Positions 2,797 through 63,699 of a stretch of 64,000 bases of DNA are shown piece by piece. The stretch comes from a bacterium (GTDB taxonomy: Bacteria; Patescibacteriota; UBA1384; 2-12-FULL-50-11), in assembly GCA_021463485.1 (NCBI GenBank), contig JAJTYJ010000001.1:139932-203931 (forward strand), given 5' to 3'. Both the position numbers and the translations under genes were made by a program. A model generated the notes under the pieces. It was given only the letters and a program-made list of their open reading frames with translations. It had not been told where the DNA came from and ran no database searches. Numbering within the stretch: the first letter of the stretch is position 1; each line of letters opens with the position of its first letter.

Positions 2797-3111
2797 TTAT
2801 CCGTCGTACTCGACATTGGCGTTGACGTGGGGGTAGAACCTGAGCACCCCCTCTTCGTCGCGCATCAGCGAAACGTTGCCGAACTTGTTGACGAAGAGAA
2901 CTGTCACCTCCTGACCTTCTCGAAGCGGCGGGTCGAACCTCTGCACAGGGATCTGTGAGTTACTGTGCTCGACGTGGTAACCGGCAACTTTGCCGTGTAC
3001 CGGGACAAACGACTTGATCTCGCCAAGAGCGAGACGACGTGCCCAGTCTTGGGCTTCCTCGAAACTAGTCTGTCCGGGTCCGAACAGACTAGCGAAGTAC
3101 AATTTGTGCAT
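2797..3111 (-). CDS. Hypothetical protein (104 aa) in a ~60% GC mini-island
   Basis: SD GGAG 6 nt upstream of the ATG; own terminator; GC content clearly above the flanking sequence; no confident family. Confidence 0.45.
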   Translation of the reverse strand: MHKLYFASLFGPGQTSFEEAQDWARRLALGEIKSFVPVHGKVAGYHVEHSNSQIPVQRFDPPLREGQEVTVLFVNKFGNVSLMRDEEGVLRFYPHVNANVEYDG

Positions 3112-3263: not shown

Positions 3264-3668
3264 ATGGATAATAAACTTGCGTTGGATATCGTCAAAGTGT
3301 TTGCGGTGATCGGGTTACTTGATACGTTGTATCTTATCTATCACAAACTGCGGGGAACCGACGTTTGGTGTCCGTTTTTTCCCGACGAGTGGTGTAGAAA
3401 AGTTCAAACAGCGCCTCAAAGTAAAACCTTTGGCATTCCGAATCCGATTCTCGGCTTCTTTATGTATGTAATTCTTCTTGCGATCGTTTTCTGGTACAGC
3501 GCCAACGCGCTCGGAATTGCAAAAATTGTTATCTGGATCGGCTTTGCGTTCTCGATGTACTTCACCTACGTCCAGGCATTCGTACTACGAGCGTTTTGTA
3601 CTTGGTGCGTTCTATCAGCAGTCAATTTTACCGTCATGTTTATCGCCAGTTTCTACTTAGTTTCGTAA
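3264..3668 (+). CDS. Vitamin K epoxide reductase (VKOR) family membrane protein
   Basis: Multi-TM protein with the paired cysteine motifs typical of VKOR (WCPFFPDEWC loop and TM CTWC motif). Confidence 0.75.
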   Translation: MDNKLALDIVKVFAVIGLLDTLYLIYHKLRGTDVWCPFFPDEWCRKVQTAPQSKTFGIPNPILGFFMYVILLAIVFWYSANALGIAKIVIWIGFAFSMYFTYVQAFVLRAFCTWCVLSAVNFTVMFIASFYLVS

Positions 3669-4382
3669 ATCGAAACGCTGTTCGAGCCGCATAATCGGAT
3701 CGTACCAGCCGTTATCGAGCACGAACGTTTGGAAGCTTTTGTCTAGGCCAAGTACAACAGCGACACCGGCAACAACGAGTAGTAATCCTATCCCTTTATG
3801 GAACCAGCCGTGGGGATCAGCGGCCCAACCAAGTTTCGAGACAATCGAGCGACCAAGCAGCGCGATCAGCGAGAGCGCGACCGCCAAACCTAGGGCGTAG
3901 AGAATTAAATATAACAATCCCTGGGTAAACGACGTTGGCAAGATTACGGCAACGATAAGCGCATACGTCGGACTACAGCTATTAAATACTGGCCCCAGAG
4001 CCGCACCGAGCAAAAAATCTCCCCATTTATTCCGCTGACCGCCAGCTGATTGCAACGACTGCCCAGCTTTTGCACTAAGTGGCGCTGCGAGTTTTTCCCA
4101 AAGGCCGGGAAAAAGCATAACCAGACCAAAAAACACCAACAACACTCCGGAAACGACTTGCCAGAATTGTTGCGGCACGCCTAATAAAGCTGTGGTTGCT
4201 TTAAGTAGAAGAGAAAAGACGACAACAGAGATTGTGAGTCCGAGGATAATCGTGAAAACTCTCGCGGTCTTCGATGTACCGTTCGTTGTACCAACAAGCA
4301 CAACCGGGAGTAGCGGTAAAATGCACGGCGCTAATACCGTTAAAAACCCGGCAAAAAACGATACGACTACTAGCGAGATCAT
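3657..4382 (-). CDS. ccdA: Cytochrome c-type biogenesis / thiol-disulfide transporter CcdA (DsbD transmembrane-domain family)
   Basis: LAPCILPLLP motif in TM1, second conserved Cys in a later TM, ~240 aa polytopic membrane protein; its ATG overlaps the stop of the upstream thioredoxin gene. Confidence 0.8.
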   Translation of the reverse strand: MISLVVVSFFAGFLTVLAPCILPLLPVVLVGTTNGTSKTARVFTIILGLTISVVVFSLLLKATTALLGVPQQFWQVVSGVLLVFFGLVMLFPGLWEKLAAPLSAKAGQSLQSAGGQRNKWGDFLLGAALGPVFNSCSPTYALIVAVILPTSFTQGLLYLILYALGLAVALSLIALLGRSIVSKLGWAADPHGWFHKGIGLLLVVAGVAVVLGLDKSFQTFVLDNGWYDPIMRLEQRFDLRN

Positions 4383-4861
4383 AATAGGTTGCTTTTAACG
4401 GAGTCGAAGTTAGGCTGATCGTACGCAACGTACTTCTCAACAAGGTTACCTTGTGCGTCGAGCCGAACCACCGTTGTTTGAACTGTTACGCCGTACTGTT
4501 TTCTTAAAGCTTGGTTTGAGTCGTAATCGACTTTAAAGATAGTCACACCGGATGGGATATCGCTCTGTTTAATGCTCGCATCGAGCGCTCGACACTGTGG
4601 GCACCAAGATGCATGAAAAAACAACAGCCGAGTTCCCTCGGTAGCGCTAACTGCCTCGGCGGAATAGTCCTTATACTCTCCCCCAGCAGCAGCGGTGTCC
4701 GTAGCGTCGGCTGAGCCCGAGTCTGTCGGTACGGTCGACTCTTGATTAGTCGGTGCTGTCGCGTTTTCGTCTACTGATTCTTGAGAGTTACTATTTTTGA
4801 TGAATATAACCGCAGCTCCAATCACAACTAACCCTATAACGATACCAATAATTATTTTCAT
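4379..4861 (-). CDS. Membrane-anchored thioredoxin-like thiol-disulfide oxidoreductase (TlpA/ResA-like)
   Basis: N-terminal TM (MKIIIGIVIGLVVIGAAVIFI) plus a thioredoxin fold with a WCPQC active site; start moved to the internal ATG at 4861. Confidence 0.75.
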   Translation of the reverse strand: MKIIIGIVIGLVVIGAAVIFIKNSNSQESVDENATAPTNQESTVPTDSGSADATDTAAAGGEYKDYSAEAVSATEGTRLLFFHASWCPQCRALDASIKQSDIPSGVTIFKVDYDSNQALRKQYGVTVQTTVVRLDAQGNLVEKYVAYDQPNFDSVKSNLL

Positions 4862-4937
4862 TCTTGAACTATAGCAGGAATGAGACTCAAATTGTTGAGA
4901 TGTTTCTATTGCCCCCAATTAGGTGTACATAAATACT

Positions 4938-9000: not shown

Positions 9001-9480
9001 ATGTTAAAAACACTCTACGTTATCGCGATCGGTTTATTATTTGCCGCTGTTGTTGGGTTAGGAATCGAAGCGTTCTACCCCCAACCAAAGTACCCTGAAT
9101 ACCCGAGAGAGCTAAATTACCCTGGAACTAACGGGTACACCGAAGAACAAAAAGCAGTACAAGATAAATTCGACGAAGAGAACAAAACCTTCATGAAGCG
9201 TATGGACACCTATAACCGAGATGTCTCACTAATACTTATCGGATTTGCGCTAGTAATTCTTGCTGTCTCGATTATCTGGGTCGGTAGTATTGAAGTGATC
9301 GGCGACGGGTTAACACTTGGTGGGGTCTTCACTCTGTTATACGGTCTGGGGCGAGCGTTGGCTGGCGGCGATGAAAAAGTCCGTTTTCTGGCTGTTGCTT
9401 TTGGATTAGTAGTGCTGGTCTTCCTTGCTTACTGGAAATATATTCGGCCGAACCAACAAAAAACGACTCCGCAGTCCTAA
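9001..9480 (+). CDS. Membrane protein (159 aa), hypothetical
   Basis: Several predicted TM helices; no family recognised. Confidence 0.5.
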   Translation: MLKTLYVIAIGLLFAAVVGLGIEAFYPQPKYPEYPRELNYPGTNGYTEEQKAVQDKFDEENKTFMKRMDTYNRDVSLILIGFALVILAVSIIWVGSIEVIGDGLTLGGVFTLLYGLGRALAGGDEKVRFLAVAFGLVVLVFLAYWKYIRPNQQKTTPQS

Positions 9481-9512
9481 GACGTTGGAGTCGTGACGGG
9501 CGGCGATCGCCC

Positions 9513-9815
9513 TCAGGCGTATGCCGGGATACGGGCAGTCGCTCTGGAACCTTGGAGAAGGCGGGTGTGTCGGCGAGCGACACGAAGATGGTGATGGCGC
9601 TCGATCCAAGCGCGAATCGCATCGTAGCCCTCGTAAACCGAGTTTCCGTCGACCTCAAGTCGAACCGAAACGATCGGTCTCATGTTGCGACCATCAGGCT
9701 CAGGCTGGTCATCAACGTACTCGACATTCGCGCCGTCAATGAGCTTGAGCTCCGCTTCCAATTTTGTCGCCGTAGCGACGCACGTTCCAGAATAGATTCT
9801 AAGGTTCATAAGCAT
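9513..9815 (-). CDS. Small glutaredoxin-like (DUF836-like) protein with a degenerate active site, in a GC-rich mini-island
   Basis: SD GAGGGA 7 nt upstream; pattern L-R-I-Y-S-G-T-C ... E-Y-V-D ... P-I-V ... G-Y-D-A-I-R-A-W resembles glutaredoxin-like DUF836 but has a single Cys; ~60% GC. Confidence 0.4.
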   Translation of the reverse strand: MLMNLRIYSGTCVATATKLEAELKLIDGANVEYVDDQPEPDGRNMRPIVSVRLEVDGNSVYEGYDAIRAWIERHHHLRVARRHTRLLQGSRATARIPAYA

Positions 9816-9911
9816 TCCCTCGCTTCCCCGCTGGTTGCGGGTTCTAATATTCTCCTGCTAATTTATTCCATTGACAAGTACTTTTAGCTAATTTTCTGGC
9901 ATACTAGCGAA

Positions 9912-10976
9912 ATGAACGACGTCTATTTTCTTGCCGGTGGAGTGGTGCTTGGCGCCGGTATAACCTATTTTTTACTCAAAAACAGACAAAATGACTTTAG
10001 CTCGGTAAGCGAACAGCTCCTCAACTTAGCGAAAGAAAAGCTCGGCGCCGAGAAGGAAGTAATTAAGACGGATCTCGAGGGCAAAAAAGACGCGATAAAA
10101 ACGCTCGTTGACGAGATTCGCCTTCAACTCAAAGAAACGGACGAAAAACTAAGACGAAGCGAACAAGATAGAATTTCTAGTTTCTCAGCGCTACAAGAAG
10201 AGCTTAAGGCACACAAACAACTAGCCAGCGAACTGCGAGGCTCGACCGATGGATTAAAGAACGTTCTTTCAAACAATCAAACCCGCGGTCAATTCGGCGA
10301 ACGGATCGCTGAAGACCTGTTAAAAATGGCGGGCTTTGTAATCAACCAGGATTACTTTGTTCAGCATCAATCTGGCGAAGGTCGCCCGGACTTTACAGTG
10401 GTGCTGCCAGATAAAACTAAGATAAATATCGACGTAAAGTTCCCGTATCAGAATCTTCAAAAATCAGCGGAGGCGAAAGACCCAGAGGAGAAGAAGCGGC
10501 ATTTCGCTCAATTTCAGCGTGATGTTCGCAAGAAAATTGGCGACATCGCCAATCGTAACTATATAAACCCGGACGACAACACCGTCGATTTTGCCGTAGC
10601 CTTTATTCCTAACGAAATGATCTTTAGTTACATCTACGAACGTTCGAACGACATTTGGGAAGAAGCGATGGCTAAAAAAGTGGTATTAGCTGGTCCATAC
10701 TCGTTTGTGGCGCTCCTAAGACTAATCAAGCAAGCCCATTCTAACTTTCAGATGCAGTCAAATATTCATAATGTTATCTCGCTGGTTCAAAAATTTCGCC
10801 AAGAGTACGAGAAGTTCTCGACCGAGCTAGATGCGCTTGGAACTCGTCTCGAGTCTGCCAGTAAGCAGTATCAAGTTGTTAGTAGTACCCGCAGCCGTCA
10901 ACTCGGGCGTGTGATGGATCAAATCGAGAACCAGCACGTACTAGACAAAACCGAACAGAACTTATTAGACAATTAG
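9912..10976 (+). CDS. rmuC: DNA recombination protein RmuC
   Basis: N-terminal TM, coiled coil, and conserved RmuC core (GQFGERIAEDLL ... PDFTVVLP ... IDVKFP). Confidence 0.85.
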   Translation: MNDVYFLAGGVVLGAGITYFLLKNRQNDFSSVSEQLLNLAKEKLGAEKEVIKTDLEGKKDAIKTLVDEIRLQLKETDEKLRRSEQDRISSFSALQEELKAHKQLASELRGSTDGLKNVLSNNQTRGQFGERIAEDLLKMAGFVINQDYFVQHQSGEGRPDFTVVLPDKTKINIDVKFPYQNLQKSAEAKDPEEKKRHFAQFQRDVRKKIGDIANRNYINPDDNTVDFAVAFIPNEMIFSYIYERSNDIWEEAMAKKVVLAGPYSFVALLRLIKQAHSNFQMQSNIHNVISLVQKFRQEYEKFSTELDALGTRLESASKQYQVVSSTRSRQLGRVMDQIENQHVLDKTEQNLLDN

Positions 10977-11026: not shown

Positions 11027-12511
11027 ATGAGTCAGAACAAGCCTGAGGCTGAGATCCGATTAGACAAGCTAAACGAACTTAAAAAGCTCGGCATCAATCC
11101 GTATCCGAGCAGAACGCCAAGCTTTCACGTAATCGGCGAGGTTCGAAAAAAGAAAGAAGGCGAGAAGATAGCAACGGTGGGTCGGATTACAGCGATTCGA
11201 GAGCACGGCAAGTCGACCTTTTTTGACATCGAAGATCCAGAAGAAAAGCTGCAAGTTTATTTTAAGCTCGACGAAGTCGGCGAGAAGTCGTATGAGCTCT
11301 TGAAACTTCTGGACGTTGGCGATTACGTATGGATCTCGGGGGAGATGTTTATTACCAAAGCTGGCGAGCTTTCGTTAAAAGCTAAAGAATTTCAGCTACT
11401 GTCAAAATCATTACTACCAATTCCGGAGGGCTGGCACGGCCTGACGGACGTCGAAACGCGTTACCGATCGCGCTCTTTGGATTTTAAGATTAACAAATCT
11501 ACCCGAGAAATCATTAAAACCCGCAGTAACATTATTAGCGGTATTCGCGACTTTCTCGATCGCCACGGATTCATCGAAATAACCACGCCGGTACTACAGC
11601 CAATCCCAGGCGGTGCCACCGCTAGGCCGTTTATTACCCACCACAACGCGCTTGACGCCGATTTTTATCTCCGAGTTTCCGACGAGCTGTATTTGAAACG
11701 CTTAGTCGTGGGTGGCTTCGAGCGCGTCTACGAGATCGGCCCGGATTTCCGCAACGAAGGATTGTCTCACATGCATAATCCAGAGTTCACGATGTGTGAG
11801 TTCTACTGGGCGTACCAAACGGCCGAAGGGTTGCGCGGTGTTACTCAAAAACTAGTTCAAGAATTAGTCGAAAAAACAAACGGTACGTTAACTATTGAGT
11901 ACCAAGGTCACAAACTCGACTTTAGCGGTGATTTCGTAGTTAAAAAATATCGCGACCTTATTGAAGAAGAGACCGGGATTAATATCGACACCGAGAACGA
12001 TTTTAAAAAGCTTAACGCCGCTGTTAAAGCAAAAAAAATTGAATTCAAGGGCCAAGATATTAAAGTGTGGAGCGAGTTAGTTGATGAGCTGTTCAAAAAA
12101 ACCTGCCGACCCAAGATTGTTCAACCTACATTCGTTATCGATTACCCGATCGCGACCGCGCCGCTAGCCAAACGTTACGAAGATCGGCCAGAGACTGCAC
12201 AAAAGTTCCAGCTAATTGTGGCGGGTGGGTTTGAATTAGTAAATGCGTACTCAGAGCTAAACGATCCGCTCGATCAAGAAGCGAGATTCCGTGAACAGAT
12301 GGAGATGCGCGAAGAAGGTTGGGACGAAGCGCAGATGCTCGACGAAAACTACATCGAGGCTTTAAAATTCGGTATGCCGCCGACTGCCGGTTGGGGAATG
12401 GGAATCGATCGGATGACGATGATTTTGACGAACCAATATTCTATAAAGGAAGTTATACCCTTTCCTACGCTAAAACCTATCAAGAATATTGGTGAGGAGA
12501 AAACGAAGTAA
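11027..12511 (+). CDS. lysS: Lysine--tRNA ligase, class II
   Basis: OB-fold anticodon-binding N-terminus plus class II motifs (FRNEG, GGxGxGIDR) and a typical C-terminus ...SIKEVIPFP. Confidence 0.95.
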   Translation: MSQNKPEAEIRLDKLNELKKLGINPYPSRTPSFHVIGEVRKKKEGEKIATVGRITAIREHGKSTFFDIEDPEEKLQVYFKLDEVGEKSYELLKLLDVGDYVWISGEMFITKAGELSLKAKEFQLLSKSLLPIPEGWHGLTDVETRYRSRSLDFKINKSTREIIKTRSNIISGIRDFLDRHGFIEITTPVLQPIPGGATARPFITHHNALDADFYLRVSDELYLKRLVVGGFERVYEIGPDFRNEGLSHMHNPEFTMCEFYWAYQTAEGLRGVTQKLVQELVEKTNGTLTIEYQGHKLDFSGDFVVKKYRDLIEEETGINIDTENDFKKLNAAVKAKKIEFKGQDIKVWSELVDELFKKTCRPKIVQPTFVIDYPIATAPLAKRYEDRPETAQKFQLIVAGGFELVNAYSELNDPLDQEARFREQMEMREEGWDEAQMLDENYIEALKFGMPPTAGWGMGIDRMTMILTNQYSIKEVIPFPTLKPIKNIGEEKTK

Positions 12512-12594
12512 TGCTGAGTATTCTCACTAACCAGCACTCAATTAAAGAAGTAATTCCGTTCCCGACGCTTCGCCCAATAAACGAAGGAAAATGA
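12511..12594 (+). repeat. Diverged duplicate of the lysS 3' end as a 27-codon ORF (MLSILTNQHSIKEVIPFPTLRPINEGK); its TGA overlaps the pgeF ATG
   Basis: Compared with lysS 12419..12511 (MILTNQYSIKEVIPFPTLKPIKN...): ~80% aa identity but ~70% nt identity, with differences concentrated at synonymous sites. Confidence 0.6.
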
Positions 12595-13391
12595 GTACTA
12601 TGGAAGCGTATCGTTTCCAAAATCTCTCGAAATTCCCCGAATTGGTTCACGGCGTCGCCACCGCTGCCTTTGGTAATATGTCGTTTCTGTACGGGCGAGA
12701 CGACGAGGTGATCGCTAACCGATATAAGTTCTTCACCTCGCTTGACGTTAACCCAGAGAAAGTTGCTGTCGCCCAGCTCTTTCACGAAGCTGATGTTCTC
12801 GAAGTAACAGAGAAAGATCGCGGTAAGGGCGTCGAAGAGACAAGATCACTCCTGTCGGCCGATATTCTAGTAACCAATAAACCCGATGTTTTTCTGTTCT
12901 TTGTAGTCGCCGACTGTCTGGCGCTTTTCTTCTACGACCCTGTTACTGGTTGCGTAGCGCTTGCTCACGCCGGGTGGAAAGGCGTTCACCGAGAAGTTCC
13001 TCGAGTAGCGATTCAAGCTCTTCGAGAACGTTACGGCGCCAAACCTGAAAATATCCTTGTAGGTATGTCTCCGAGCATTAAGAAGGAGTCGGCTAAATTC
13101 AAAGAGATAAACCAGACAAAGTTCCCTCAGTGGCAGCCGTATATATATAGGTGCAATAAATGCACCTTCTCTGACAAAAATATTGTCAGAGATAACGAGG
13201 TTGAACACTACCATGTTGACGTTTCTCGATTTGCTTACGATCAACTACTTAGCACTGGGATTTACGAGGAACATATCGAAGAATCGCCGATCGACACTCG
13301 TACTAGCTCAGACTTTTTCTCACATCGGCGCAGCGACGAAGAGAATATTCCCGAAGCCCGCTTTGGCTGTGTAATTGGCATTAAGAAATAG
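12591..13391 (+). CDS. pgeF: Peptidoglycan editing factor PgeF / YfiH (laccase-domain, DUF152) family protein
   Basis: Conserved motifs VVADCLALFFYDP and ALAHAGWKG plus the C-terminal His region. Confidence 0.8.
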   Translation: MSTMEAYRFQNLSKFPELVHGVATAAFGNMSFLYGRDDEVIANRYKFFTSLDVNPEKVAVAQLFHEADVLEVTEKDRGKGVEETRSLLSADILVTNKPDVFLFFVVADCLALFFYDPVTGCVALAHAGWKGVHREVPRVAIQALRERYGAKPENILVGMSPSIKKESAKFKEINQTKFPQWQPYIYRCNKCTFSDKNIVRDNEVEHYHVDVSRFAYDQLLSTGIYEEHIEESPIDTRTSSDFFSHRRSDEENIPEARFGCVIGIKK

Positions 13392-13466
13392 TTTTACCCT
13401 ACCCCTTTCTAAAAAATTACTCTGTTAACCAATTAGAAATTATTCCAAAAATTCCGTCTAAACTTA

Positions 13467-13495
13467 TTGACATTTTGCAATGTTTCGGGTATAGT
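13467..13495 (+). promoter_or_regulatory. Consensus sigma70 promoter TTGACA-N17-TATAGT upstream of the GC-rich two-gene module
   Basis: Perfect -35, 17-nt spacer and 5/6 -10, ~100 nt upstream of ATG 13594. Confidence 0.5.
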
Positions 13496-13593
13496 TAGCG
13501 CCGCATCGTGAGAGTTCAGAAAACAACCACGACGCACATAAACATAACGACATTGCTACGACGGCCGGCGACGGCCCAAGGAGACACGCACCA

Positions 13594-14190
13594 ATGAAGA
13601 CTCTGAAAATGCTTCTCTTCGTCATTGTGCTCGTCGTCGGCTCAGCTTCTGCGTTCGCGCAGAGCGTCGACGAACTCGGCGGAGCGAACCCGCCGGTCAC
13701 GAGCACCGACCCAGTCGGCCAAGACCCCACGAACTTGCCGAGTCATCAACCTCCGCCCTGGGAAACTCGGGAGGGAGTTGAGGTAGCGGCTCGGAATTAC
13801 TTCGAGGCAAAAAACCAGTACAACGAGTGTCGGCATCGCGGCGACAAGCCGGGCATGGCTCGCGCCGCGAAGCGGATGCGCACTCACTCGAACGCCCTGG
13901 CTGCCTTTAAAAAGCAGCAAGCGGCGCGCGACAAGGCGCAAGACGCTAGGCTCGATGCTCACAGCAACCTCGTGTGGAAGCACGAGTCGCAGTTGAACGG
14001 CAAAGGCGGTCTTAACGACCGACAAGGCAAAACCGAAAAGCGCGTAAAAACGCTTGAGGAAGAGATGGACGCCGTGACGCCGGCAATCGCCGGCATCAAC
14101 GGAAAGTTCGACGGACTCACTTGGTGGGTTCTGATTCTCACTCTCATCGTTCTGATCGGCTTTGGCCGACGCTACTGGATCCACCGCTAA
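13594..14190 (+). CDS. Secreted protein with a C-terminal TM anchor (198 aa) in a GC-rich island
   Basis: SD AAGGAG; signal peptide MKTLKMLLFVIVLVVGSASAFA; C-terminal TM WWVLILTLIVLIGF; ~60% GC. Confidence 0.55.
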   Translation: MKTLKMLLFVIVLVVGSASAFAQSVDELGGANPPVTSTDPVGQDPTNLPSHQPPPWETREGVEVAARNYFEAKNQYNECRHRGDKPGMARAAKRMRTHSNALAAFKKQQAARDKAQDARLDAHSNLVWKHESQLNGKGGLNDRQGKTEKRVKTLEEEMDAVTPAIAGINGKFDGLTWWVLILTLIVLIGFGRRYWIHR

Positions 14191-14207
14191 GGAGTCGGGA
14201 AGAAACC

Positions 14208-14855
14208 ATGAACATCAGTGACCTCATGCTGACCACGCCCCTCGGGGCGATCCTCATCATCGTCTTGCTCGTCCTGGCCGCCATCGCGGCTTGGGGGGCA
14301 TACGCAAACCGTCCTACCGCCAGGCTGGAGACGGCACCGCCGACTCCGCCTCAGCGACCGACCCCAGCTCCGGAGCCTCCGAAGAAGGAGGAGCCGAAGC
14401 CAATCGTCGAGCAACCCCTCCCCAAAAAGGAGTCGGAACCTTGCACTTGCAAGGAAGAGGAACCGTGCGCCAAGGAGCGCGAGGAGATTAGGCGCCTAGA
14501 AGGCGAGCTGGAGACGGCGAGAGCCGACAGCAACACGAAGGAGGGTGAGAACAACGAACTCACCAAACGTCTCGCCAACGCCAACCGGCGACTCGAGGAG
14601 TCGCAGACGAATGCGAAGCTGGCCAAGCCGCAGAAGGTGACGGCCAGTAACATCCTTCCGTTGCTCGATGATCTCGGCAACATCAACTTCAGCGCTGCAA
14701 AGCAGCTTCGGGCGGAGGCCAACAAGCCTCAGCCTGAGTACGCACGGATCGAGAAGCGACTCGGAGTTTTCGCGGACTACTGCGAGCAGCGCGGCTTCGA
14801 ACGCCCCGACCCCGGCACTCTACTGCAGCTTCTGCAGGAAGCGCTCAAGCAGTAG
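14208..14855 (+). CDS. N-terminally membrane-anchored Pro-rich / coiled-coil protein (215 aa) in a GC-rich island
   Basis: SD AAGGAG 9 nt upstream; TM helix, then a PTPPQRPTPAPEPP linker and a coiled-coil region. Confidence 0.55.
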   Translation: MNISDLMLTTPLGAILIIVLLVLAAIAAWGAYANRPTARLETAPPTPPQRPTPAPEPPKKEEPKPIVEQPLPKKESEPCTCKEEEPCAKEREEIRRLEGELETARADSNTKEGENNELTKRLANANRRLEESQTNAKLAKPQKVTASNILPLLDDLGNINFSAAKQLRAEANKPQPEYARIEKRLGVFADYCEQRGFERPDPGTLLQLLQEALKQ

Positions 14856-14930
14856 CGCAACAATGAATCCACAACGGACCGTTCTCAATGGCACCAGCCA
14901 ACGAGACGGTCCTCTTTTTTTATCTAATTT

Positions 14931-17780
14931 TTATTTGATTAATTTAATTAGCTCCCGGAGCGAGATAGTATGATCGTACTGTTGGTCACCTTCATCACGC
15001 ATTAAAGTAATATTAAAGTCTATGGTCTCCGGTTCTCCAACGCCTTCTGCCATTAGTATTGAAAGCGGAGTCTCCGATAGTTTTTGCGAGCGAGGGATAT
15101 TTAATGCCTCTTTAATCTCTGCTGCTTGTTCGCTGTTATCCGCTGCTTCAGAAAAATTAATTGACTGGCCCTCGGCGAAATCGTCTGGGGTTTTACCCGC
15201 CTCTGTAATTAAATCGTACAACTCCTTGTCGGGCTCAGACTCTGACTCCGGTTCTGGCTCGGGAGCTTGGGTTAGCTGCTCTACTTGTTTTTCAGGTTGT
15301 TGAGTATGATTTGGATTTTCTTCTTCGGTTGGGGACCGATCTTGTTCTGTAACTTCCTCCGATTGAGATGATTCTAGATTTCGCCCAACTACCATTGATT
15401 CGATCGTTGAATACACAAATGGTTGAGCAATTTTGCCAACCTTAGTAACGATCGTTTGACGCTTTGAATCGACTCGATCTACGGTGATTTTTACCAAACC
15501 ATTTTCTTTCTCACCGCTTCGCAGAACAGTAGTGCCGATTCGGCTTGAATCACCCTCAGGAACTCTCAAGAAAAGTACGTCACCTTGGGCTATATCTTCA
15601 AACTTTACGCTCGCTTCGTTCTCCTCAACGCTCTTATTTGCTTCTACCCTTACAGTATTAATATTAGGCTGGCCGTTAACAGTGATGGGCACCGGTTCTT
15701 CCTTTTGAAGCTGTTTCTTGGCGTTAGCATCTTCAAACCGGTCAACAATCTCGTTAAGCAGAGCTGTCACTTCTTTGCTTGATGGGTTTGTTATAACTTT
15801 CCAACCATCTTTCTCCCGTGAATCAGTTCTACCAAGAACAATCTTAGGCGGGTTCGGCAACGGCCGCCCTTCGCGATCGTACTCTGGCTCCGGATATTCT
15901 AACTTAATAGATTGGGAGAAATTGTCTTTGTTTTTCAAGAAGATCGACGTGACCGAACGACCGTCTGGTGCTGGAGTCTTGCTCATTGTGATCCCAAATG
16001 TGTTTAACGTATCTTCGTCTAATTCAGAAGCTCCAAACGAATACAGCTTCTCAACATCTTCAACTATCGACGCAGCGTCACTACTTTCTGGTTCAACTTT
16101 CTTATCGCCTTTTTCGTTATAAGCCTCCAGGAAAGCCTTGCTAATATCCTCTTCAACACCTTCAAGGATTTCTTGATGACCAGTAGTGTCTTTTTCGGCC
16201 CACCGAACCGGTAAGTTCTTGCCATTTTCACCAGCTGGTAATTCTTTTTGGTCACGGGCGTTAAGAGCTGCTTGCTCGCCATCCGTTTTATCAACGCCCG
16301 ATTCTTCTGGTTTTTTGCGCATCGGTAACGCTTTAGCTTCGCCGCCCGGTAATGCTAGCCGATTATCATCAGATTTTGATTCAGTTGCCTTGGGTTCTCC
16401 GCCACTCTTTTTAACAGATGAAAAGAACTCAGCCAAGAACTGCAGCTGTGCCCCAGCTATTGGCACAGCTTCTTTCCAGAACGATCCGGCTAACGCAGCA
16501 GCGCGCTCAGCAAGTTCGGGATTATTTTGCACTATCAAGTTGCGGAAGATACTATCGTTGAGACCTGATAATACGTGAACTTCGCTACCATTATTTAACA
16601 CGGCTGTTGTAACTTCGGCAGCCTTATTGACGCCAAACTCAGCCGCCGCAGTTCCACCGTTGTAGTTAAAGACAAAACCTCCTGTTTTTTCGAGTTGTTG
16701 GGCAAACCCTGGATCGGCGCTAGCGATATCACTCGGGTTAATTTTTTCGACAAAATGTTGTATTCCATCTTTATCAAAATCTGCCCATACCCCACGAACT
16801 TTATCAATATCGGCATTAAGCAAGCTCTCCTGAATTGCATATCCTCCCAGCCCACCTAATATTGAACCACCTGCTGCAATAATGTCAGCTACCTTCTCTC
16901 GTTTTTTTTCAAGACGCATCTTGTCATAGCCAAGTCTTTGCGTTTCAGCTAAACCACTGAGTTCCTTCTCCACTTTATTTTCCGCATAAAGTGCCTGGTA
17001 GCTTTCATAATGAGTGAGGTCAATAAAGTATTGATGGAGTTCTGCAAGTTGTTTGTCGATTTCCACCCTTCGTTCTTCGTCGGCCTCCTCGCGCTCCATG
17101 ACTAGATCCACAGCTTGGTCTTGAAGCCTGGCTGCCTCGGCAAATACCTTAGAGCGAGATTCGATAACTTTGGTTCTACCCTCACGTTCATCCTTCTTAA
17201 AATGTCGGTAAAGCTCGAAGGCCCCTCGCGCCGCAGCACCGCCAGCCAACGCCGCTAGAAAGACAGGCGAGCCGACTGTCCCACCGAGTATTGCGGCAAT
17301 ACCTGCACCGATACCACCAGCAACACCGGTTTTTACACCAATTTTGCCGAGACGAAGTGCGCCATCACGACCTAATAATCGAAATGCTTTTTTAAGTTCT
17401 TTGGCTTGCTCTTCAGGCTTTGCATCAGCAACTCGTTCAGAGATTTTTAAGTCAGAGTATTCACCTGCAAATACAGCTTTGGTTTGCTTAATAAATCGGC
17501 TAAGTACATTACCCTCACTAATTTTATAACGCTCCGCGATCTCTTCGATACTTCGCTGTCGGGCCTGCTCAACGTAATTAATAGCGAATTTCTCGCGTTC
17601 CTGTTTATTATCGACAACCGTATCGGCGTTCTCGGGTGAAATCAGTGGAGCAGGCTCTTCCGGGGTTGGTTCGCTTTCTGGTTTTTCGGCTACTTCCTCA
17701 GTGGTATCTTTCCACTCGTCGGGGCTTAATTCATAAACTTCCGGATCTTGGCCAGCATCAGCGCCCCTCAGCTCCGACAT
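14931..17780 (-). CDS. Large acidic hypothetical protein (949 aa) with Gly/Ala-rich hydrophobic segments
   Basis: Long open frame translationally coupled to the upstream 111-aa gene; glycine-zipper-like segments GVAGGIGAGIAAILGG and IIAAGGSILGGLGG; no NTP-binding motif or known domain recognised. Confidence 0.7.
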   Translation of the reverse strand: MSELRGADAGQDPEVYELSPDEWKDTTEEVAEKPESEPTPEEPAPLISPENADTVVDNKQEREKFAINYVEQARQRSIEEIAERYKISEGNVLSRFIKQTKAVFAGEYSDLKISERVADAKPEEQAKELKKAFRLLGRDGALRLGKIGVKTGVAGGIGAGIAAILGGTVGSPVFLAALAGGAAARGAFELYRHFKKDEREGRTKVIESRSKVFAEAARLQDQAVDLVMEREEADEERRVEIDKQLAELHQYFIDLTHYESYQALYAENKVEKELSGLAETQRLGYDKMRLEKKREKVADIIAAGGSILGGLGGYAIQESLLNADIDKVRGVWADFDKDGIQHFVEKINPSDIASADPGFAQQLEKTGGFVFNYNGGTAAAEFGVNKAAEVTTAVLNNGSEVHVLSGLNDSIFRNLIVQNNPELAERAAALAGSFWKEAVPIAGAQLQFLAEFFSSVKKSGGEPKATESKSDDNRLALPGGEAKALPMRKKPEESGVDKTDGEQAALNARDQKELPAGENGKNLPVRWAEKDTTGHQEILEGVEEDISKAFLEAYNEKGDKKVEPESSDAASIVEDVEKLYSFGASELDEDTLNTFGITMSKTPAPDGRSVTSIFLKNKDNFSQSIKLEYPEPEYDREGRPLPNPPKIVLGRTDSREKDGWKVITNPSSKEVTALLNEIVDRFEDANAKKQLQKEEPVPITVNGQPNINTVRVEANKSVEENEASVKFEDIAQGDVLFLRVPEGDSSRIGTTVLRSGEKENGLVKITVDRVDSKRQTIVTKVGKIAQPFVYSTIESMVVGRNLESSQSEEVTEQDRSPTEEENPNHTQQPEKQVEQLTQAPEPEPESESEPDKELYDLITEAGKTPDDFAEGQSINFSEAADNSEQAAEIKEALNIPRSQKLSETPLSILMAEGVGEPETIDFNITLMRDEGDQQYDHTISLRELIKLIK

Positions 17781-21023: not shown

Positions 21024-21156
21024 CGCTTACACGGAGAATAACAGATACGGGACCAGAAGAGTATACCGAGAAACTACTGGATCTTTCGGACATTTTTTAG
21101 TATCATTCTAAAACGTTTCCGCAAAAACGGAGGCGAACATCGGAGGGTAATGCACA

Positions 21157-21447
21157 TTGCAACTCAGTAACTGTAAGAACGAACGGCAGCTCATGGTAGC
21201 TGCTGCCCAACACATCGGGGCAAACCCGAGAAGTAGGACCATCAATCAGGTCTACCGCGCCGTGCAAAGGTCGGGCCGACTGCTCGACAAACCGCACAAG
21301 ACGCTTCAGCGGATCGACGCGACCCGGGAGGGAATCGCCGAGCTGAAGAAGGACGGTCACGACCATCACATTCCGCGCTACGTCCGACGCGCTCTGGTGG
21401 ACGGGCAGCCCTGCCCCAAGAAGTTCTTGCAATCCGTCGTCGGCTAA
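21157..21447 (+). CDS. Possible small orphan CDS in a GC-rich segment; strand and start are uncertain
   Basis: Open frames on both strands (21157..21447 + with a TTG start, 21103..21432 -); GGAGGG SD-like sequence at 21142; ~60% GC; no homology. Confidence 0.2.
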   Translation: MQLSNCKNERQLMVAAAQHIGANPRSRTINQVYRAVQRSGRLLDKPHKTLQRIDATREGIAELKKDGHDHHIPRYVRRALVDGQPCPKKFLQSVVG

Positions 21448-38766: not shown

Positions 38767-39750
38767 TCATGCTGCCAGGATTCTTTGGAGAAGGGCGGCT
38801 TCCGGCCGGAACGAGAACAGGATGCCGTTCTCAACAGATTGCGCCACTTCTTTAAGCGTCAATTTGGTCGGTTCGACGCCGGTGGCAGTCAGCGAGCCGT
38901 TCAAGCACATCCCGGTTTCCACCTGGAAGTGCCACTTCGGCATCCCGGAGATCGCCGCCTCTCCAAATAGGCGAGGATCCAGCGGCTCGATGGCGAGCCC
39001 GGCAAGCTTGGCCTCAGCCAGACGAATCCGGCCAACGACGTGCGGCATCAGAGCTGCCAGATCTTGGCGCGTCGGCAGGACCTGAATATTACCGCTGGAG
39101 CGCTCGATAATCAGGATTGAGATTCCTCGACCGTGTTTAGCTGAGCGCGCCACGCTCAGTAACTGATCGTTATCGCTGCGAATCGTAGCGATCCGCAGCT
39201 TTCTGCCGCTTGGCAGCTTAACGACTTGAGTCCTGGCTCTCGCGAGCTCGGGAACTGCGCTAGTGTGAAACCGGCGCTGTGCCCGGAGATGGGTCACAAT
39301 CTCCTCGATCGCCCACTCCAAAACTTTCTGGTCGCTCTGGCCGTCCTGGTACTTTGTTCGCATTGAGTGCGCCAAATCCATCATCGAGCTCCGACCCTGC
39401 AGGTCGTTTGCCTTAATCCAGTTAAGGACGTAGGCAACTTCCGGCCTATTGGCGACGCCGAGCGCCTTAGCGACCAGGGTCGCGCAGGTCTCGTTTTCGG
39501 TGCGGGCAGCAGTGTCGGTGGCGTGCTCGTTGAATCGTCCCGAACCGACGCCGACCTGTAGAATCCCTTGAGCTTCGAGCTCTTTAGGATCTTTGCCTTG
39601 GTAGTTCTGATACCCAGAGTCGATGAAGACAATCTGAGCATCTCGAGAGAGATTGAGTTGGTCGCCGCCGTACTCGCGCAACAGCGCGATCGCGGCGGCT
39701 TCGTCCGGGTGCGGACGACGATGAGTGACGATGTTATTGAATTTTCTCAA
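38767..39750 (-). CDS. GC-rich gene for a putative metal-dependent hydrolase, MYG1/UPF0160-like (tentative); TTG start with a GGAG SD
   Basis: The N-terminus IVTHRRPHPDEAAAIALL parallels the MYG1 pattern THxGxFHxDEALAxxLL; later VGVGSGRFNEH and a C-terminal G-x-x-x-NGSLTATG pattern; ~60% GC. Confidence 0.5.
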   Translation of the reverse strand: MRKFNNIVTHRRPHPDEAAAIALLREYGGDQLNLSRDAQIVFIDSGYQNYQGKDPKELEAQGILQVGVGSGRFNEHATDTAARTENETCATLVAKALGVANRPEVAYVLNWIKANDLQGRSSMMDLAHSMRTKYQDGQSDQKVLEWAIEEIVTHLRAQRRFHTSAVPELARARTQVVKLPSGRKLRIATIRSDNDQLLSVARSAKHGRGISILIIERSSGNIQVLPTRQDLAALMPHVVGRIRLAEAKLAGLAIEPLDPRLFGEAAISGMPKWHFQVETGMCLNGSLTATGVEPTKLTLKEVAQSVENGILFSFRPEAALLQRILAA

Positions 39751-60658: not shown

Positions 60659-61075
60659 ATGCAATTTAAAGTTCCTCAGAATATAGATATGCAGGACCGA
60701 ATTATTGGTCCGCTAACCTTGAGCCAATTTTTCTACTTACTCTTTGGCGGACTAATTATCTATATTTTATTTAGCAAATTAGTTCTAAGCGGCTTCTCTT
60801 TTCTCTTTTGGATTTTAGCCATCCCGATCGGGGTATTTAGCTTCTGTATGGCGTTTATAAAGATACAAGACCGGCCGTTCCCTGTTTTCTTTATGGCGAT
60901 GGTTCGCTACATGTCTCAGCCTCGAGCTCGAGTTTGGCAACACTACACCCCGGCGCAACAATCTCGACCAGTAAAACAAACTAAAAAAGTTGAGCAACAA
61001 CCAAAGAAAGCGCTTGATCCGATTCGGGTTAACGAACTAGCTAGTGTTTTGGACGATCCGGAGACTAAACAATAA
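60659..61075 (+). CDS. PrgI / VirB3-like small membrane protein
   Basis: ~138 aa with two TM helices, directly upstream of and nearly abutting the VirB4 ATPase, as in Gram-positive T4SS loci; strong SD GGGGGGAA. Confidence 0.55.
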   Translation: MQFKVPQNIDMQDRIIGPLTLSQFFYLLFGGLIIYILFSKLVLSGFSFLFWILAIPIGVFSFCMAFIKIQDRPFPVFFMAMVRYMSQPRARVWQHYTPAQQSRPVKQTKKVEQQPKKALDPIRVNELASVLDDPETKQ

Positions 61076-61077
61076 CG

Positions 61078-63699
61078 ATGGCGAAAAAACCACAAATCGC
61101 TCCAACACAGAAGTATCTACAGATCGAACGAATTCGAGACGGTATTATCATCCTTAAAGACGGGCGCCTGCGAAAAGTAATTAAAGCCGTACCTGTTAAC
61201 TTCGATTTGAAAAGCGAGAACGAGAAAGAAGTGGCGGTTTATCAGTATCAAAGTTTTTTAAATTCGCTCAAGTTTCCTGTGGAAATTGTCGTGCAGTCAC
61301 GACGAGTCGACTTAGCGGCGTATATCGATAAAGTTGAACGCGCTAGTGCCGGCGAGATTAATGAGTTACTCCAAAGACAAGCTAAGGACTATTTAGATTT
61401 CGTCAAAACTCTAAGTGAGCAGATTAACATTATGGAGAAATCGATCTATATCGTTATTAGTCACACCGCTAAAGGCGCTGTCGAGAACGAAACGCTTATC
61501 GACAAAGTACTCAAACGAAAGAAGGTCGGCGTTACTGCGATCAGTGACGACGAATTTAAGGGTTATAAAGAAATACTCGAGGAGCGATCGCGCACAATTA
61601 GCGGTCGTCTGAACTCACTCGGCGTCACTACTAAAGAACTAGATACTAAAGAGATTATTGAACTCTTTTATAACACCTATAATCCAGAAGAATCGTATAC
61701 CCAGCACCTAAAAGACCCTGAGCAGTTTACGGCCCCAATCTTGGAGCACGGCCAAAAACTGCTCGAGGAAGCGACGAATAAAAACGCACCGCAATCCGAC
61801 GTTAAGTTACAACAAGCGCAAGCGGCACCAAACCCAGAAAAAACGGCAAACGCTCCGACTAAGGAGGAGATCGAGCTAGCTAACCCGTCGGCGATGAAAA
61901 AGACCACCGTCAGCGAGATATTCGGCAAGTTGGGCGTCAAGCATAGCGACCCAACGAGTACCGATGAGGTGTTACGTCAGGGTGTAGCTAGCGTGTTAGA
62001 CATTATCGCACCAGGCGGTATGAATATCACGCCGAACTATATCCAGCTCGGCAGCTTCTTTGTTCGAACGCTTTTTGTCTACACGTACCCACGATACTTA
62101 CAGGCAAACTGGCTTTCACCGATTATTAACTACGACGCAACGCTCGACATTAGTATGTTTATTTATCCGATCGAGACGAACGTGTTACTCGGACAGCTTC
62201 GTCGAAAAACTACGCAGCTCCAGTCGAGCTTACAGATAGAAGCTGAGAAAGGACTTGTGAGAAATCCTGAGCTTGAGACTGCCGTCGGCGATATCGAAGA
62301 GCTTCGCGACACATTACAAAAAGGTGAGACTCGGCTTTTCCAGATGAGTCTTTACTTCACTTTGTACTCCACCTCGATCGACGAACTAAATAAAATGTCT
62401 AAGCAATTCGAGGCGATCCTAGGTGGGCAACTAATTTACACCAAACAAGCGCTCCTACAGATGGAGCAGGGCTTTAATTCGACGTTACCGCTCGGCGACG
62501 ACCAATTGGATGTTGTTCGAAATCTCGACACCGCTTCACTCTCAACAACGTTTCCGTTTACCTCAGCTGAGCTGTCTCACCACGACGGCGTACTGTACGG
62601 CATTAATCTCCATAACAGCTCGTTGGTACTATTTGACCGCTTCAAAATGGAGAACGCTAATCAGGTTGTCTTCGCCAAATCCGGTGCCGGTAAATCGTAC
62701 GCCGTGAAGCTTGAAGCGATTAGATCGCTGATGCTTGGCTCTGAAGTAATCGTGATCGACCCAGAAAATGAGTACAAATCTTTAGCAGAAGCTGTCGGCG
62801 GCACCTACATTAACCTCTCGCTCAACTCGCAGCAAAAAATTAACCCATTCGATCTGCCAAAGTATCGAGAAGGAAGCGACGAGACCGGCGAGCAGCTCCT
62901 GCGTGCCACAGTAACGTCAGTTCATGGACTGGTTGCGCTAATGGCAGGAAGCCTATCCCCAGAGGAAGACAACCTACTGGATAAAGCGCTCTACGAAACG
63001 TACGCCCTTCGCGACATCACCACCGACGCCGCCACCCACTCAAATACTCCCCCCACACTGAGCGACCTTACGACAGTCCTACAAAATATGACGGGTACCG
63101 AGTCGCTCGTGAACCGGCTCGCTAAATACACCGACGGGAGCTTTGCCAGTCTCTTCAACGCCCAAACTAATATCGATATGAACAATAAAGTCACCGTCTT
63201 CTCGATTCGGGATATGGAAGAGGAGCTGCGGCCGATCGCGATGTATATGGCGTTAAATTACATCTGGAGCCGCGTTAAAAGCGATCTCAAGAAACGGATG
63301 ATGATTCTAGACGAGGGCTGGATTATGATGCGCTACGAAGATTCGGCGAAGTTTGTTAATGCGATCGCTAAACGCGCGCGTAAATACTACCTTGGTTTAA
63401 CTGTTATTAGCCAAGACGTTGAGGATTTTTTGAGCTCCAACTACGGCCGGTCGGTCGTTAACAACTCTTCGACGCAACTACTACTCGGGCAATCTACCTC
63501 CGCCATCGATAAAATTGCAGAGACCTTCAAGCTTACTGATGGCGAAAAGTTCTTTTTGACCGAAGCTGAGGTTGGGCAGGGGTTGTTCTTCGCTGGCAAT
63601 AATCGCGCTGCCATTCAAATCGTATCGTCGTACACCGAAGACCAGATTATCACCACCGATCCAAAGCAATTATTAGAGCTCTACGGAATAAGTGAGTAA
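61078..63699 (+). CDS. virB4: Type IV secretion system ATPase VirB4 (TrsE/PrgJ/CagE family)
   Basis: 873 aa; Walker A VVFAKSGAGKSYAVK, Walker B RMMILDEGW, conserved VirB4 N-terminal region. Confidence 0.9.
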   Translation: MAKKPQIAPTQKYLQIERIRDGIIILKDGRLRKVIKAVPVNFDLKSENEKEVAVYQYQSFLNSLKFPVEIVVQSRRVDLAAYIDKVERASAGEINELLQRQAKDYLDFVKTLSEQINIMEKSIYIVISHTAKGAVENETLIDKVLKRKKVGVTAISDDEFKGYKEILEERSRTISGRLNSLGVTTKELDTKEIIELFYNTYNPEESYTQHLKDPEQFTAPILEHGQKLLEEATNKNAPQSDVKLQQAQAAPNPEKTANAPTKEEIELANPSAMKKTTVSEIFGKLGVKHSDPTSTDEVLRQGVASVLDIIAPGGMNITPNYIQLGSFFVRTLFVYTYPRYLQANWLSPIINYDATLDISMFIYPIETNVLLGQLRRKTTQLQSSLQIEAEKGLVRNPELETAVGDIEELRDTLQKGETRLFQMSLYFTLYSTSIDELNKMSKQFEAILGGQLIYTKQALLQMEQGFNSTLPLGDDQLDVVRNLDTASLSTTFPFTSAELSHHDGVLYGINLHNSSLVLFDRFKMENANQVVFAKSGAGKSYAVKLEAIRSLMLGSEVIVIDPENEYKSLAEAVGGTYINLSLNSQQKINPFDLPKYREGSDETGEQLLRATVTSVHGLVALMAGSLSPEEDNLLDKALYETYALRDITTDAATHSNTPPTLSDLTTVLQNMTGTESLVNRLAKYTDGSFASLFNAQTNIDMNNKVTVFSIRDMEEELRPIAMYMALNYIWSRVKSDLKKRMMILDEGWIMMRYEDSAKFVNAIAKRARKYYLGLTVISQDVEDFLSSNYGRSVVNNSSTQLLLGQSTSAIDKIAETFKLTDGEKFFLTEAEVGQGLFFAGNNRAAIQIVSSYTEDQIITTDPKQLLELYGISE

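Follow-up and report, generated by a model that had tools for sequence, protein, structure and literature searches.

Local deviations in GC content are routinely read as horizontal transfer. Other known systems that share features with the locus described here are the stabilised mRNAs of abundant envelope proteins, such as those carrying the 5′ stem-loop of Escherichia coli ompA or the leaders of S-layer genes, the mosaic or dimorphic surface-protein loci pspA and cbpA of pneumococci, which are kept by recombination, and the target genes of diversity-generating retroelements (DGRs), which are common in bacteria of the candidate phyla radiation (CPR). We analyzed a 64,000-nt stretch of the patescibacterial contig JAJTYJ010000001.1 (assembly GCA_021463485.1; hereafter, the window), in which a GC-rich segment of ~1.4 kb holds two genes, g1 and g2, between a promoter and a terminator of their own. 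An earlier note, made from the letters of the window, had taken this segment for a horizontally acquired surface module, perhaps a phage or plasmid remnant. Our analysis leads to a different reading, to which we give a probability of about one half: the segment would be an ancestral, vertically kept bicistronic operon of a Berkelbacteria-like Patescibacteria clade, its GC content shaped by selection at the level of the transcript, and not a foreign island.

The compositional deviation itself is as strong as the earlier note had described it (~60% GC against a backbone of ~48-50%). The GC content of positions 13500-14900 is 60.0% vs 48.3% across the whole window, which ranks this interval first among all 1.4-kb windows (z = +4.2; the runner-up, at ~38.5 kb, has 56.3%). 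In 200-nt and 50-nt GC profiles the edges are sharp, at ~13500 and ~14900, so that the GC-rich tract coincides with the transcription unit, from promoter and transcription start site (TSS) to terminator (Table 1), and the neighbouring genes show no such shift at their 3′ ends, 76-200 bp away. A codon-usage check agreed: the GC content at third codon positions (GC3) is 0.71 in g1 and 0.77 in g2 vs a mean of 0.50 (standard deviation 0.06) in the 46 other genes of the window, and the shift is toward both G- and C-ending codons for nearly all amino acids. Amino-acid composition was rejected as the cause, since Pro, Ala and Arg are enriched and GC at first and second positions is raised slightly, but GC3 holds most of the excess. 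The remaining secreted or membrane protein genes of the window have an ordinary GC3 (0.43-0.49); hence the excursion is specific to the g1-g2 operon and is not, as the earlier note had allowed, typical of the secreted-protein genes.

Table 1. Features of the g1-g2 transcription unit and its borders (window coordinates)
Feature	Position	Strand	GC	Description
Final 200 bp of pgeF			0.45	
Promoter intergenic region	13392-13501		0.32	
Sigma-70-type promoter	13467-13495	+		TTGACA 13467-13472, 17-nt spacer, TATAGT 13490-13495; predicted TSS ~13502
5′ untranslated region (5′UTR)	13502-13593	+	0.55	two hairpins
5′-terminal hairpin	13503-13535	+		begins 1-2 nt from predicted TSS
Second leader hairpin	13563-13576	+		GGCCG-GCGA-CGGCC; inside invariant 16-mer, just 5′ of the Shine-Dalgarno sequence (SD) of g1
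SD of g1	13578-13583	+		AAGGAG
g1	13594-14190	+	0.59	198 aa, type I membrane protein
g1 signal peptide	13594-13659	+		cleavage AFA↓Q
g1 C-terminal transmembrane segment (TM)	14116-14166	+		L175-G191, then cytoplasmic tail RRYWIHR
SD of g2	14189-14194	+		AAGGAG; overlaps g1 stop codon
g2	14208-14855	+	0.62	215 aa
g2 N-terminal TM	14241-14303	+		
g2 linker	14304-14465	+		Pro/Lys/Glu-rich, CxC...C motif
g2 two helices	14466-14615	+		
g2 C-terminal head domain	14625-14852	+		small, helical
Dimorphic recombining module	14644-14792	+		~150 bp in the g2 head, aa ~146-195, sharply bounded
3′UTR and terminator			0.56	
Intrinsic terminator	14876-14921	+		14-bp interrupted stem (14876-14912) and T-run
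Sequence beyond terminator T-run			0.11	
Convergent neighbour	14931-17780	-		949 aa, Gly/Ala-rich hydrophobic segments
Final 200 bp of 949-aa gene			0.41	

The distribution of the two genes decided against a recent origin. Both are very restricted (5-7 clusters each among 5.8 billion), and a profile search with g1 gave 13 matches among 1.84 billion representatives. All of the g1 matches whose contigs were retrieved share one syntenic locus, four weak ones (P0019-P0022) being left untraced. The order lysS-(pgeF)-g1-g2, followed in the convergent direction by a protein of ~800-1200 aa and then by DUF5663, rpoD and dnaG, is found in every contig recovered, and was seen in relatives L001-L012, L016, L019, L020 and L023. 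These extend from strains at 98% identity to remote lineages, and include near-identical strains (L002-L009), a sister lineage in which synonymous divergence is saturated (L001, L010), the nearest named relative, a Candidatus Berkelbacteria metagenome-assembled genome (L011), and the distant lineages L016 (GCA_964408575.1), L019 (GCA_034680565.1), L020 and L023; in the last of these the g1 match is only E = 1.6e-6, yet the locus is the same. The window itself is 100% identical to BOKZ01000001.1 ('Patescibacteria group bacterium BroJett034'); a literature search on BroJett034 found nothing.

The segment does share with genomic islands a sharp deviation of GC and codon usage over ~1.4 kb, together with a promoter and a terminator of its own. 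Unlike an island, however, g1-g2 is not sporadic but occupies the same locus in all the relatives found, its deviation persists through saturated lineages and its boundaries match the transcript. Conservation in all relatives is what the earlier note had itself named as a reason to give up its reading. No integrase or transposase was found at g1-g2, as the earlier note had already remarked for the adjacent genes (the neighbours are lysS, pgeF, DUF5663, rpoD and dnaG), the only tRNA is 6.6 kb away, and the repeats are short and at chance level. Of the features of a genomic island that were tested, atypical composition is thus the only one that the segment shows. A recent island or a phage or plasmid remnant, for instance a lysis cassette in which the pair would resemble XhlA or spanins, is therefore so improbable that we set it aside: apart from the GC deviation it could draw on weak architectural echoes in PHROG (an XhlA-type 'hemolysin' at E = 0.39 for g1, Rz-like spanins at E = 0.7-0.9 for g2), but every PHROG match is non-significant and synteny effectively refutes it. 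Furthermore, no homologue was detected in 50,697 phage genomes or IMG/VR (plasmids were not searched), and there are no repeats, tRNA or integrase at the boundaries. The comparison with XhlA or Rz-Rz1 spanin cassettes also fails in detail (PHROG E = 0.39-0.92), because the signal peptide of g1 ends in AFA↓Q with no Cys, i.e., there is no lipobox, and no endolysin, holin or other lysis gene lies nearby.

The GC excess is old and has been maintained. In six lineages of the window's clade the GC content of the cassette is 0.60-0.61 and that of the flanks 0.42-0.50; the corresponding values are 0.59-0.62 and 0.43-0.51 in L020, 0.55-0.56 and 0.46-0.51 in L019, and 0.62 / 0.69 and 0.34-0.44 in L023. 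When the window was compared with L001 and L010, the proportion of synonymous differences (pS) was 0.44-0.52 in the cassette vs 0.60-0.77, i.e., saturated, in the flanks, and the non-synonymous divergence (dN) of the cassette was 3-6x that of lysS, ~2-4x that of pgeF and similar to that of the 949-aa gene. In the time that it took for pS to saturate in the flanks, foreign DNA under no selection would have lost its deviating composition, whereas GC3 in the cassette is still high. The synonymous sites of the cassette are thus held at G or C, and their turnover is slowed. The best reading of these data is selection at the level of the transcript, probably for a stable, strongly expressed mRNA.

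The same figures bear on an older transfer, in which the ancestor of the clade took the pair from a GC-rich donor, or the locus was replaced time and again from a GC-rich reservoir, and amelioration stayed incomplete. The strongly atypical composition and codon usage would suit such an origin, as would an mRNA folding bias that resembles that of genes from GC-rich genomes, and the compositionally normal version in distant L016 would fit a replacement elsewhere. However, neutral amelioration should have erased the signal when pS in the flanks is saturated (~0.75), yet GC3 in the cassette exceeds 0.7 in all these lineages, even in L020 and L023, where protein identity is down to ~37% or an alignment is hardly possible. 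In addition, no homologue was found outside the clade among the 1.84 billion representatives and 5.8 billion clusters searched, the flanks have at most 51% GC in every recovered context, and mobility signatures are absent. We consider this origin improbable.

The main rival is GC-biased gene conversion at a recombination hot spot, where exchange between lineages would lower pS and raise GC3 without any selection on the RNA. This is the alternative that we take most seriously, even though we judge it unlikely. Recombination between lineages is demonstrated inside g2 (see below), pS is lower in the cassette than in the flanks, and a shift to both G- and C-ending codons is a compositional signature and not one of the tRNA type. 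An association between recombination and GC3 is documented in bacteria (PMC4450053), and this also counts for gene conversion. Against it, the GC content changes abruptly at the TSS and at the terminator, the neighbouring genes have a normal composition at their 3′ ends 76-200 bp away, and the cassette follows the genome tree outside a module of 150 bp. The GC3 excess of recombining genes is reportedly a few points, far below the +25 to +40 points of the cassette, and gene conversion alone would leave without explanation a folding beyond that of composition-matched shuffles.

Returning to selection on the transcript, the proposed explanation is as follows. A conserved, near-consensus sigma-70 promoter would drive a transcript of ~1.4 kb with a hairpin at its 5′ terminus, a second GC hairpin beside the first ribosome-binding site and a strong terminator, and this transcript would encode g1 and g2, two single-pass membrane proteins that probably form one trans-membrane complex. 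The 60% GC would be a property of the transcript, kept over deep time by selection on synonymous and untranslated positions, and the likeliest target of this selection would be a heavily base-paired, nuclease-resistant and long-lived mRNA that allows a high output of two envelope proteins. The head of g2 exists in two 150-bp module forms, which are exchanged by homologous recombination and coexist in one species-level population.

The signals that delimit the predicted transcript are conserved. The TTGACA-N17-TATAGT promoter, which had been picked out in the earlier note, is the sole site with at most one mismatch to the consensus in 64 kb. With a chance expectation of 0.26 sites, and one or more of them in 24% of shuffles, this motif does not reach significance by itself; its real support is that the position and both hexamers are kept in all relatives, the hexamers and their spacing being conserved in L001, L002, L010, L012, L011, L016, L019, L020 and L017. 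The second leader hairpin lies within the 16-mer ACGGCCGGCGACGGCC (13561-13576), which does not vary among six lineages, one of them L011, where the rest of the leader cannot be aligned; this 16-mer could act as a hairpin, or as a protein- or RNA-binding site. Distant lineages swap the second hairpin for other GC hairpins of 4-5 bp (GGCC-GGAA-GGCC in L016, GCCC-GGAC-GGGC in L015). The overall fold of the 5′UTR is not significant alone (z -1.4). The terminator (dG -22.6 kcal/mol, z -5.0, with none of 200 shuffles equally stable) is conserved in L001, L002, L010 and L012, and an analogous hairpin with a T-run is present in L016 and L023. Both AAGGAG SDs of the earlier note were located ahead of g1 and g2. 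Upstream of the promoter, a GC-rich palindrome (GAAGGGGGTAGGGG...CCCCTACCCCCTTC) separates it from pgeF in L001 (9725-9790), L010 and L012, and the window retains the right half only (CCCTACCCCTTTC, 13403-13421).

In its strong promoter, its hairpin 1-2 nt from the predicted TSS, the hairpin on the SD side, its terminator and its envelope products, this arrangement resembles the stabilised mRNAs of envelope proteins mentioned above. It differs from them in that the coding body of g1-g2 is also GC-enriched and over-folded and in that there is no sequence relationship, and the likeness is known here from sequence correlates.

We then analyzed mRNA folding. With dinucleotide shuffles in 120-nt windows the mean z was -1.81 in the cassette vs -0.28 in lysS and pgeF (p = 7e-5). 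This excess was also observed in L001, L011 and L020, was weaker in L019 and was absent in L016, so that folding tracks the GC excess across lineages. Codon-preserving shuffles gave z -6.1 for g1 and -5.0 for g2, and shuffles that keep codon-position composition gave -2.3 and -2.2, the flanks lying between 0 and -0.4 (-3.2 and -1.65 vs -0.4 in L023). An artefact of periodicity was rejected, as the excess persists under position-class shuffles. The structure relaxes around the start of g2, where z is about 0 in windows 14120 and 14180. These results are consistent with selection for a compact mRNA, but are not proof of it.

It could be argued that the tract serves mainly as a structured RNA, non-coding or with a dual function, whose open reading frames (ORFs) are incidental, or that the real gene is an ORF of the antisense strand. 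A GC-rich tract in a genome richer in AT is often the mark of a structural RNA, folding here exceeds that of shuffles, the UTRs are GC-rich too, and the gene caller chose an antisense ORF in L010. Nevertheless, differences among relatives in g1 and g2 fall by codon position in the order 3>1>2, indels come in triplets, and the ratio of dN to synonymous divergence (dN/dS) is 0.2-0.34, which identifies both as coding; the signal peptide, the TMs and the SDs are conserved. An overlapping antisense gene was rejected, since neither the frame nor the length of the antisense ORFs is conserved. In Rfam 15 the tRNA was the sole match at gathering score across the window, no match at E<=1 was obtained in 13300-15000, and covariation support was not found. 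We therefore regard a non-coding tract as highly improbable. The public gene call at g1 in L010 (179 aa, 9445-9984, minus strand) is an antisense shadow ORF, with the true g1 on the plus strand; it is an annotation artefact typical of GC-rich tracts. In another reading, which we hold to be unlikely, the GC enrichment would be an actively maintained property that is delimited by the transcript and conserved across Patescibacteria lineages so far apart that their proteins hardly align; the RNA itself would then be the conserved object, whether through its overall compactness, its resistance to nucleases, its localisation or an additional role as a non-coding RNA, and the fast-evolving proteins would be secondary.

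Several results weigh against selection on the mRNA of an ancestral operon. L016 alone is compositionally ordinary (cassette GC 0.52 / 0.48, flanks 0.47), which shows that the GC excess is not a necessary attribute of the family. Among the genes of the window, only rpsO (ribosomal protein S15) is clearly highly expressed, and its GC3, 0.37, is the lowest of all, which rules out simple expression-linked codon bias as the cause of the excess and shows that high expression does not generally go with high GC3 here. The antisense strand is also over-folded (z -1.33), pgeF reaches -3.25 in the codon-shuffle test, and the other GC-rich gene of the window (38767-39750, minus strand) has z -1.4 under periodicity-preserving shuffles. 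RNAalifold on six lineages gave no net covariation (covariation term +7.5), hence no defined RNA architecture is conserved. Folding excess rises with GC in prokaryotic coding sequences generally (PMC7063772), and the folding signal may go along with a high GC content without being what causes it. Finally, all loci were reached through g1 or g2, an approach by which relatives without the operon are undetectable, and scans of metagenomes of the Joint Genome Institute (JGI) anchored on DUF5663 and on the 949-aa protein returned nothing.

The anatomy of the products agrees with the earlier note, which had described a signal-peptide protein with a C-terminal TM anchor and an N-terminally anchored Pro-rich protein: g1 and g2 are oppositely anchored single-pass membrane proteins. 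In g1 the N-terminal stretch is variable and of low complexity, and the ectodomain contains a conserved helical hairpin (WETREG...YF.AK...RGD..GM...FKKQQAARD), which is helical in the AlphaFold2 (AF2) model with a predicted local distance difference test score (pLDDT) of 85-95 at residues 60-135. No C-terminal sorting signal (LPXTG, PEP or similar) was found in g1, where GKFDGLTWW precedes the TM and the basic tail. In g2 the model reaches pLDDT ~90 at residues 140-215 and stays <50 at residues 33-84. In PADLOC, g2 gave only coiled-coil noise (E = 0.015-0.065) and g1 no match. Neither protein gave anything above noise in Pfam, PHROG, NCBIfam or PADLOC, and Foldseek of the AF2 models vs the PDB gave no match below E = 0.4 and only generic helical hairpins. 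The proteins g1 and g2 represent uncharacterised, clade-restricted membrane-protein families.

The homologues of g2 carry 0-1 Lys or Arg ahead of the TM and 1-4 just behind it, so that by the positive-inside rule g2 is more likely N-out/C-in, with tether and head in the cytoplasm; judged from the sequence, the bulk of g2 is probably cytoplasmic. The helical hairpin of g1 would be exposed outside the cell, and the two proteins probably form one trans-membrane complex by association through their TMs. With its N-terminal TM, Glu/Lys/Pro-rich spacer and small C-terminal head, g2 recalls the tethers TonB/TolA or ZipA, and in orientation it would match ZipA with the C terminus inside the cell and TonB with the C terminus outside. 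In contrast to TonB and TolA, the NCBIfam scores of g2 are far below the cut-offs (TonB, 19.8 bits vs 265; TolA, 15.5 vs 59.45) and come from the Pro-rich region only, its head is all-helical, with no PDB match and no Pfam domain, and no ExbBD or TolQR genes lie nearby. A VKOR - DsbD_2 - thioredoxin cluster at 3264-4918 of the window suggests extracytoplasmic disulfide-bond formation, which is relevant to the conserved Cys of g1 and g2 if those regions are extracytoplasmic.

The length of g2 is highly plastic across lineages (133 to 414 aa, with up to three head-like modules in L019), and its head is mosaic. The module has two forms, type A in the window, L010, L012 and P0008 and type B in L002/L003 and L001. 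Sliding identity between L002/L003 and the window is 96-100% except at 14489-14789, where it drops to 57-75%, and within the module L002 has 61% identity to the window and 96% to L001, to which its identity in the flanks is ~78%. In a four-taxon analysis of 14644-14792, 51 sites grouped the window with L010 and L002 with L001, and 3 sites followed the genome tree, whereas outside the module ~500 sites followed the genome tree and each alternative had at most 1 site per 200 bp. Since the two forms cut across the genome phylogeny, they point to recombination between lineages, and we read the sequences as two forms of the g2 head exchanged by homologous recombination. Both alleles are present in several independent samples of one species-level population.

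Two deeply diverged forms (~60% nucleotide identity) between conserved flanks, crossing lineages and co-occurring in a population, are reminiscent of pspA and cbpA, although the g2 module is only 150 bp, belongs to an unrelated family and may lie in a cytoplasmic domain. The dimorphism suggests frequency-dependent selection by a partner, for which a phage, a host or a selfish element would be candidates. DGR target genes, too, can show hypervariability confined to a C-terminal stretch of a protein anchored in the membrane, but the variation in g2 consists of two discrete alleles and not of a cloud. A DGR target was rejected on further grounds: no template repeat was found in the 64-kb window (the rest of the genome was not searched), self-BLAST of the cassette gave only chance matches of 13-23 nt, and the alleles differ at all four bases, with no adenine specificity. 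None of the genes adjoining the operon codes for a reverse transcriptase, more distant ORFs having been screened only in part.

Other features of the window were noted. The 949-aa neighbour is always linked to DUF5663-rpoD-dnaG and the cassette (76% identity in L001, 99% in L002) and gave no family match; gene orientation flips from plus to minus at its junction with g2. The cumulative GC skew has its maximum at 7-13 kb and declines over the following 40 kb, for which gene strand bias or a nearby replication terminus is possible. Between lysS and pgeF there is an indel of ~75 nt (window 12427-12590) relative to L002/L003, in which the two genes are 5 nt apart. A second compositional outlier, the 327-aa ORF at 38767-39750 (minus strand; GC 0.58, GC3 0.67), has no Pfam or NCBIfam match, and two short GC-rich ORFs of doubtful coding status at 21103-21432 and 2797-3111 (both minus strand; GC 0.58 and 0.56), one of which adjoins a tRNA-Ser, have no family match. 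At the window edge, a PrgI-family protein followed by an 873-aa VirB4/TraG-like P-loop ATPase (60659-63699, plus strand) resembles a type IV secretion or conjugation-like cluster.

What looked like a textbook island is here a clean counter-example to the routine reading of local GC deviation, and g1-g2 is among the most stably placed loci of its clade. The puzzle is that GC3 lies 25-40 points over that of the genome within one transcript, beyond the time of synonymous saturation; it is unusual, and so far without explanation, that a GC excess shaped like the transcript has been conserved so deeply in an operon that codes for proteins. If the RNA were indeed the conserved object, compositional selection of a kind not described before would act on a bacterial protein-coding transcript, and this in organisms with minimal RNA-decay and regulatory machinery. 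With their strong, conserved expression signals and a dimorphic module, g1 and g2 are good candidates for envelope functions, or for functions in host or phage interaction, in these uncultured ultra-small bacteria.

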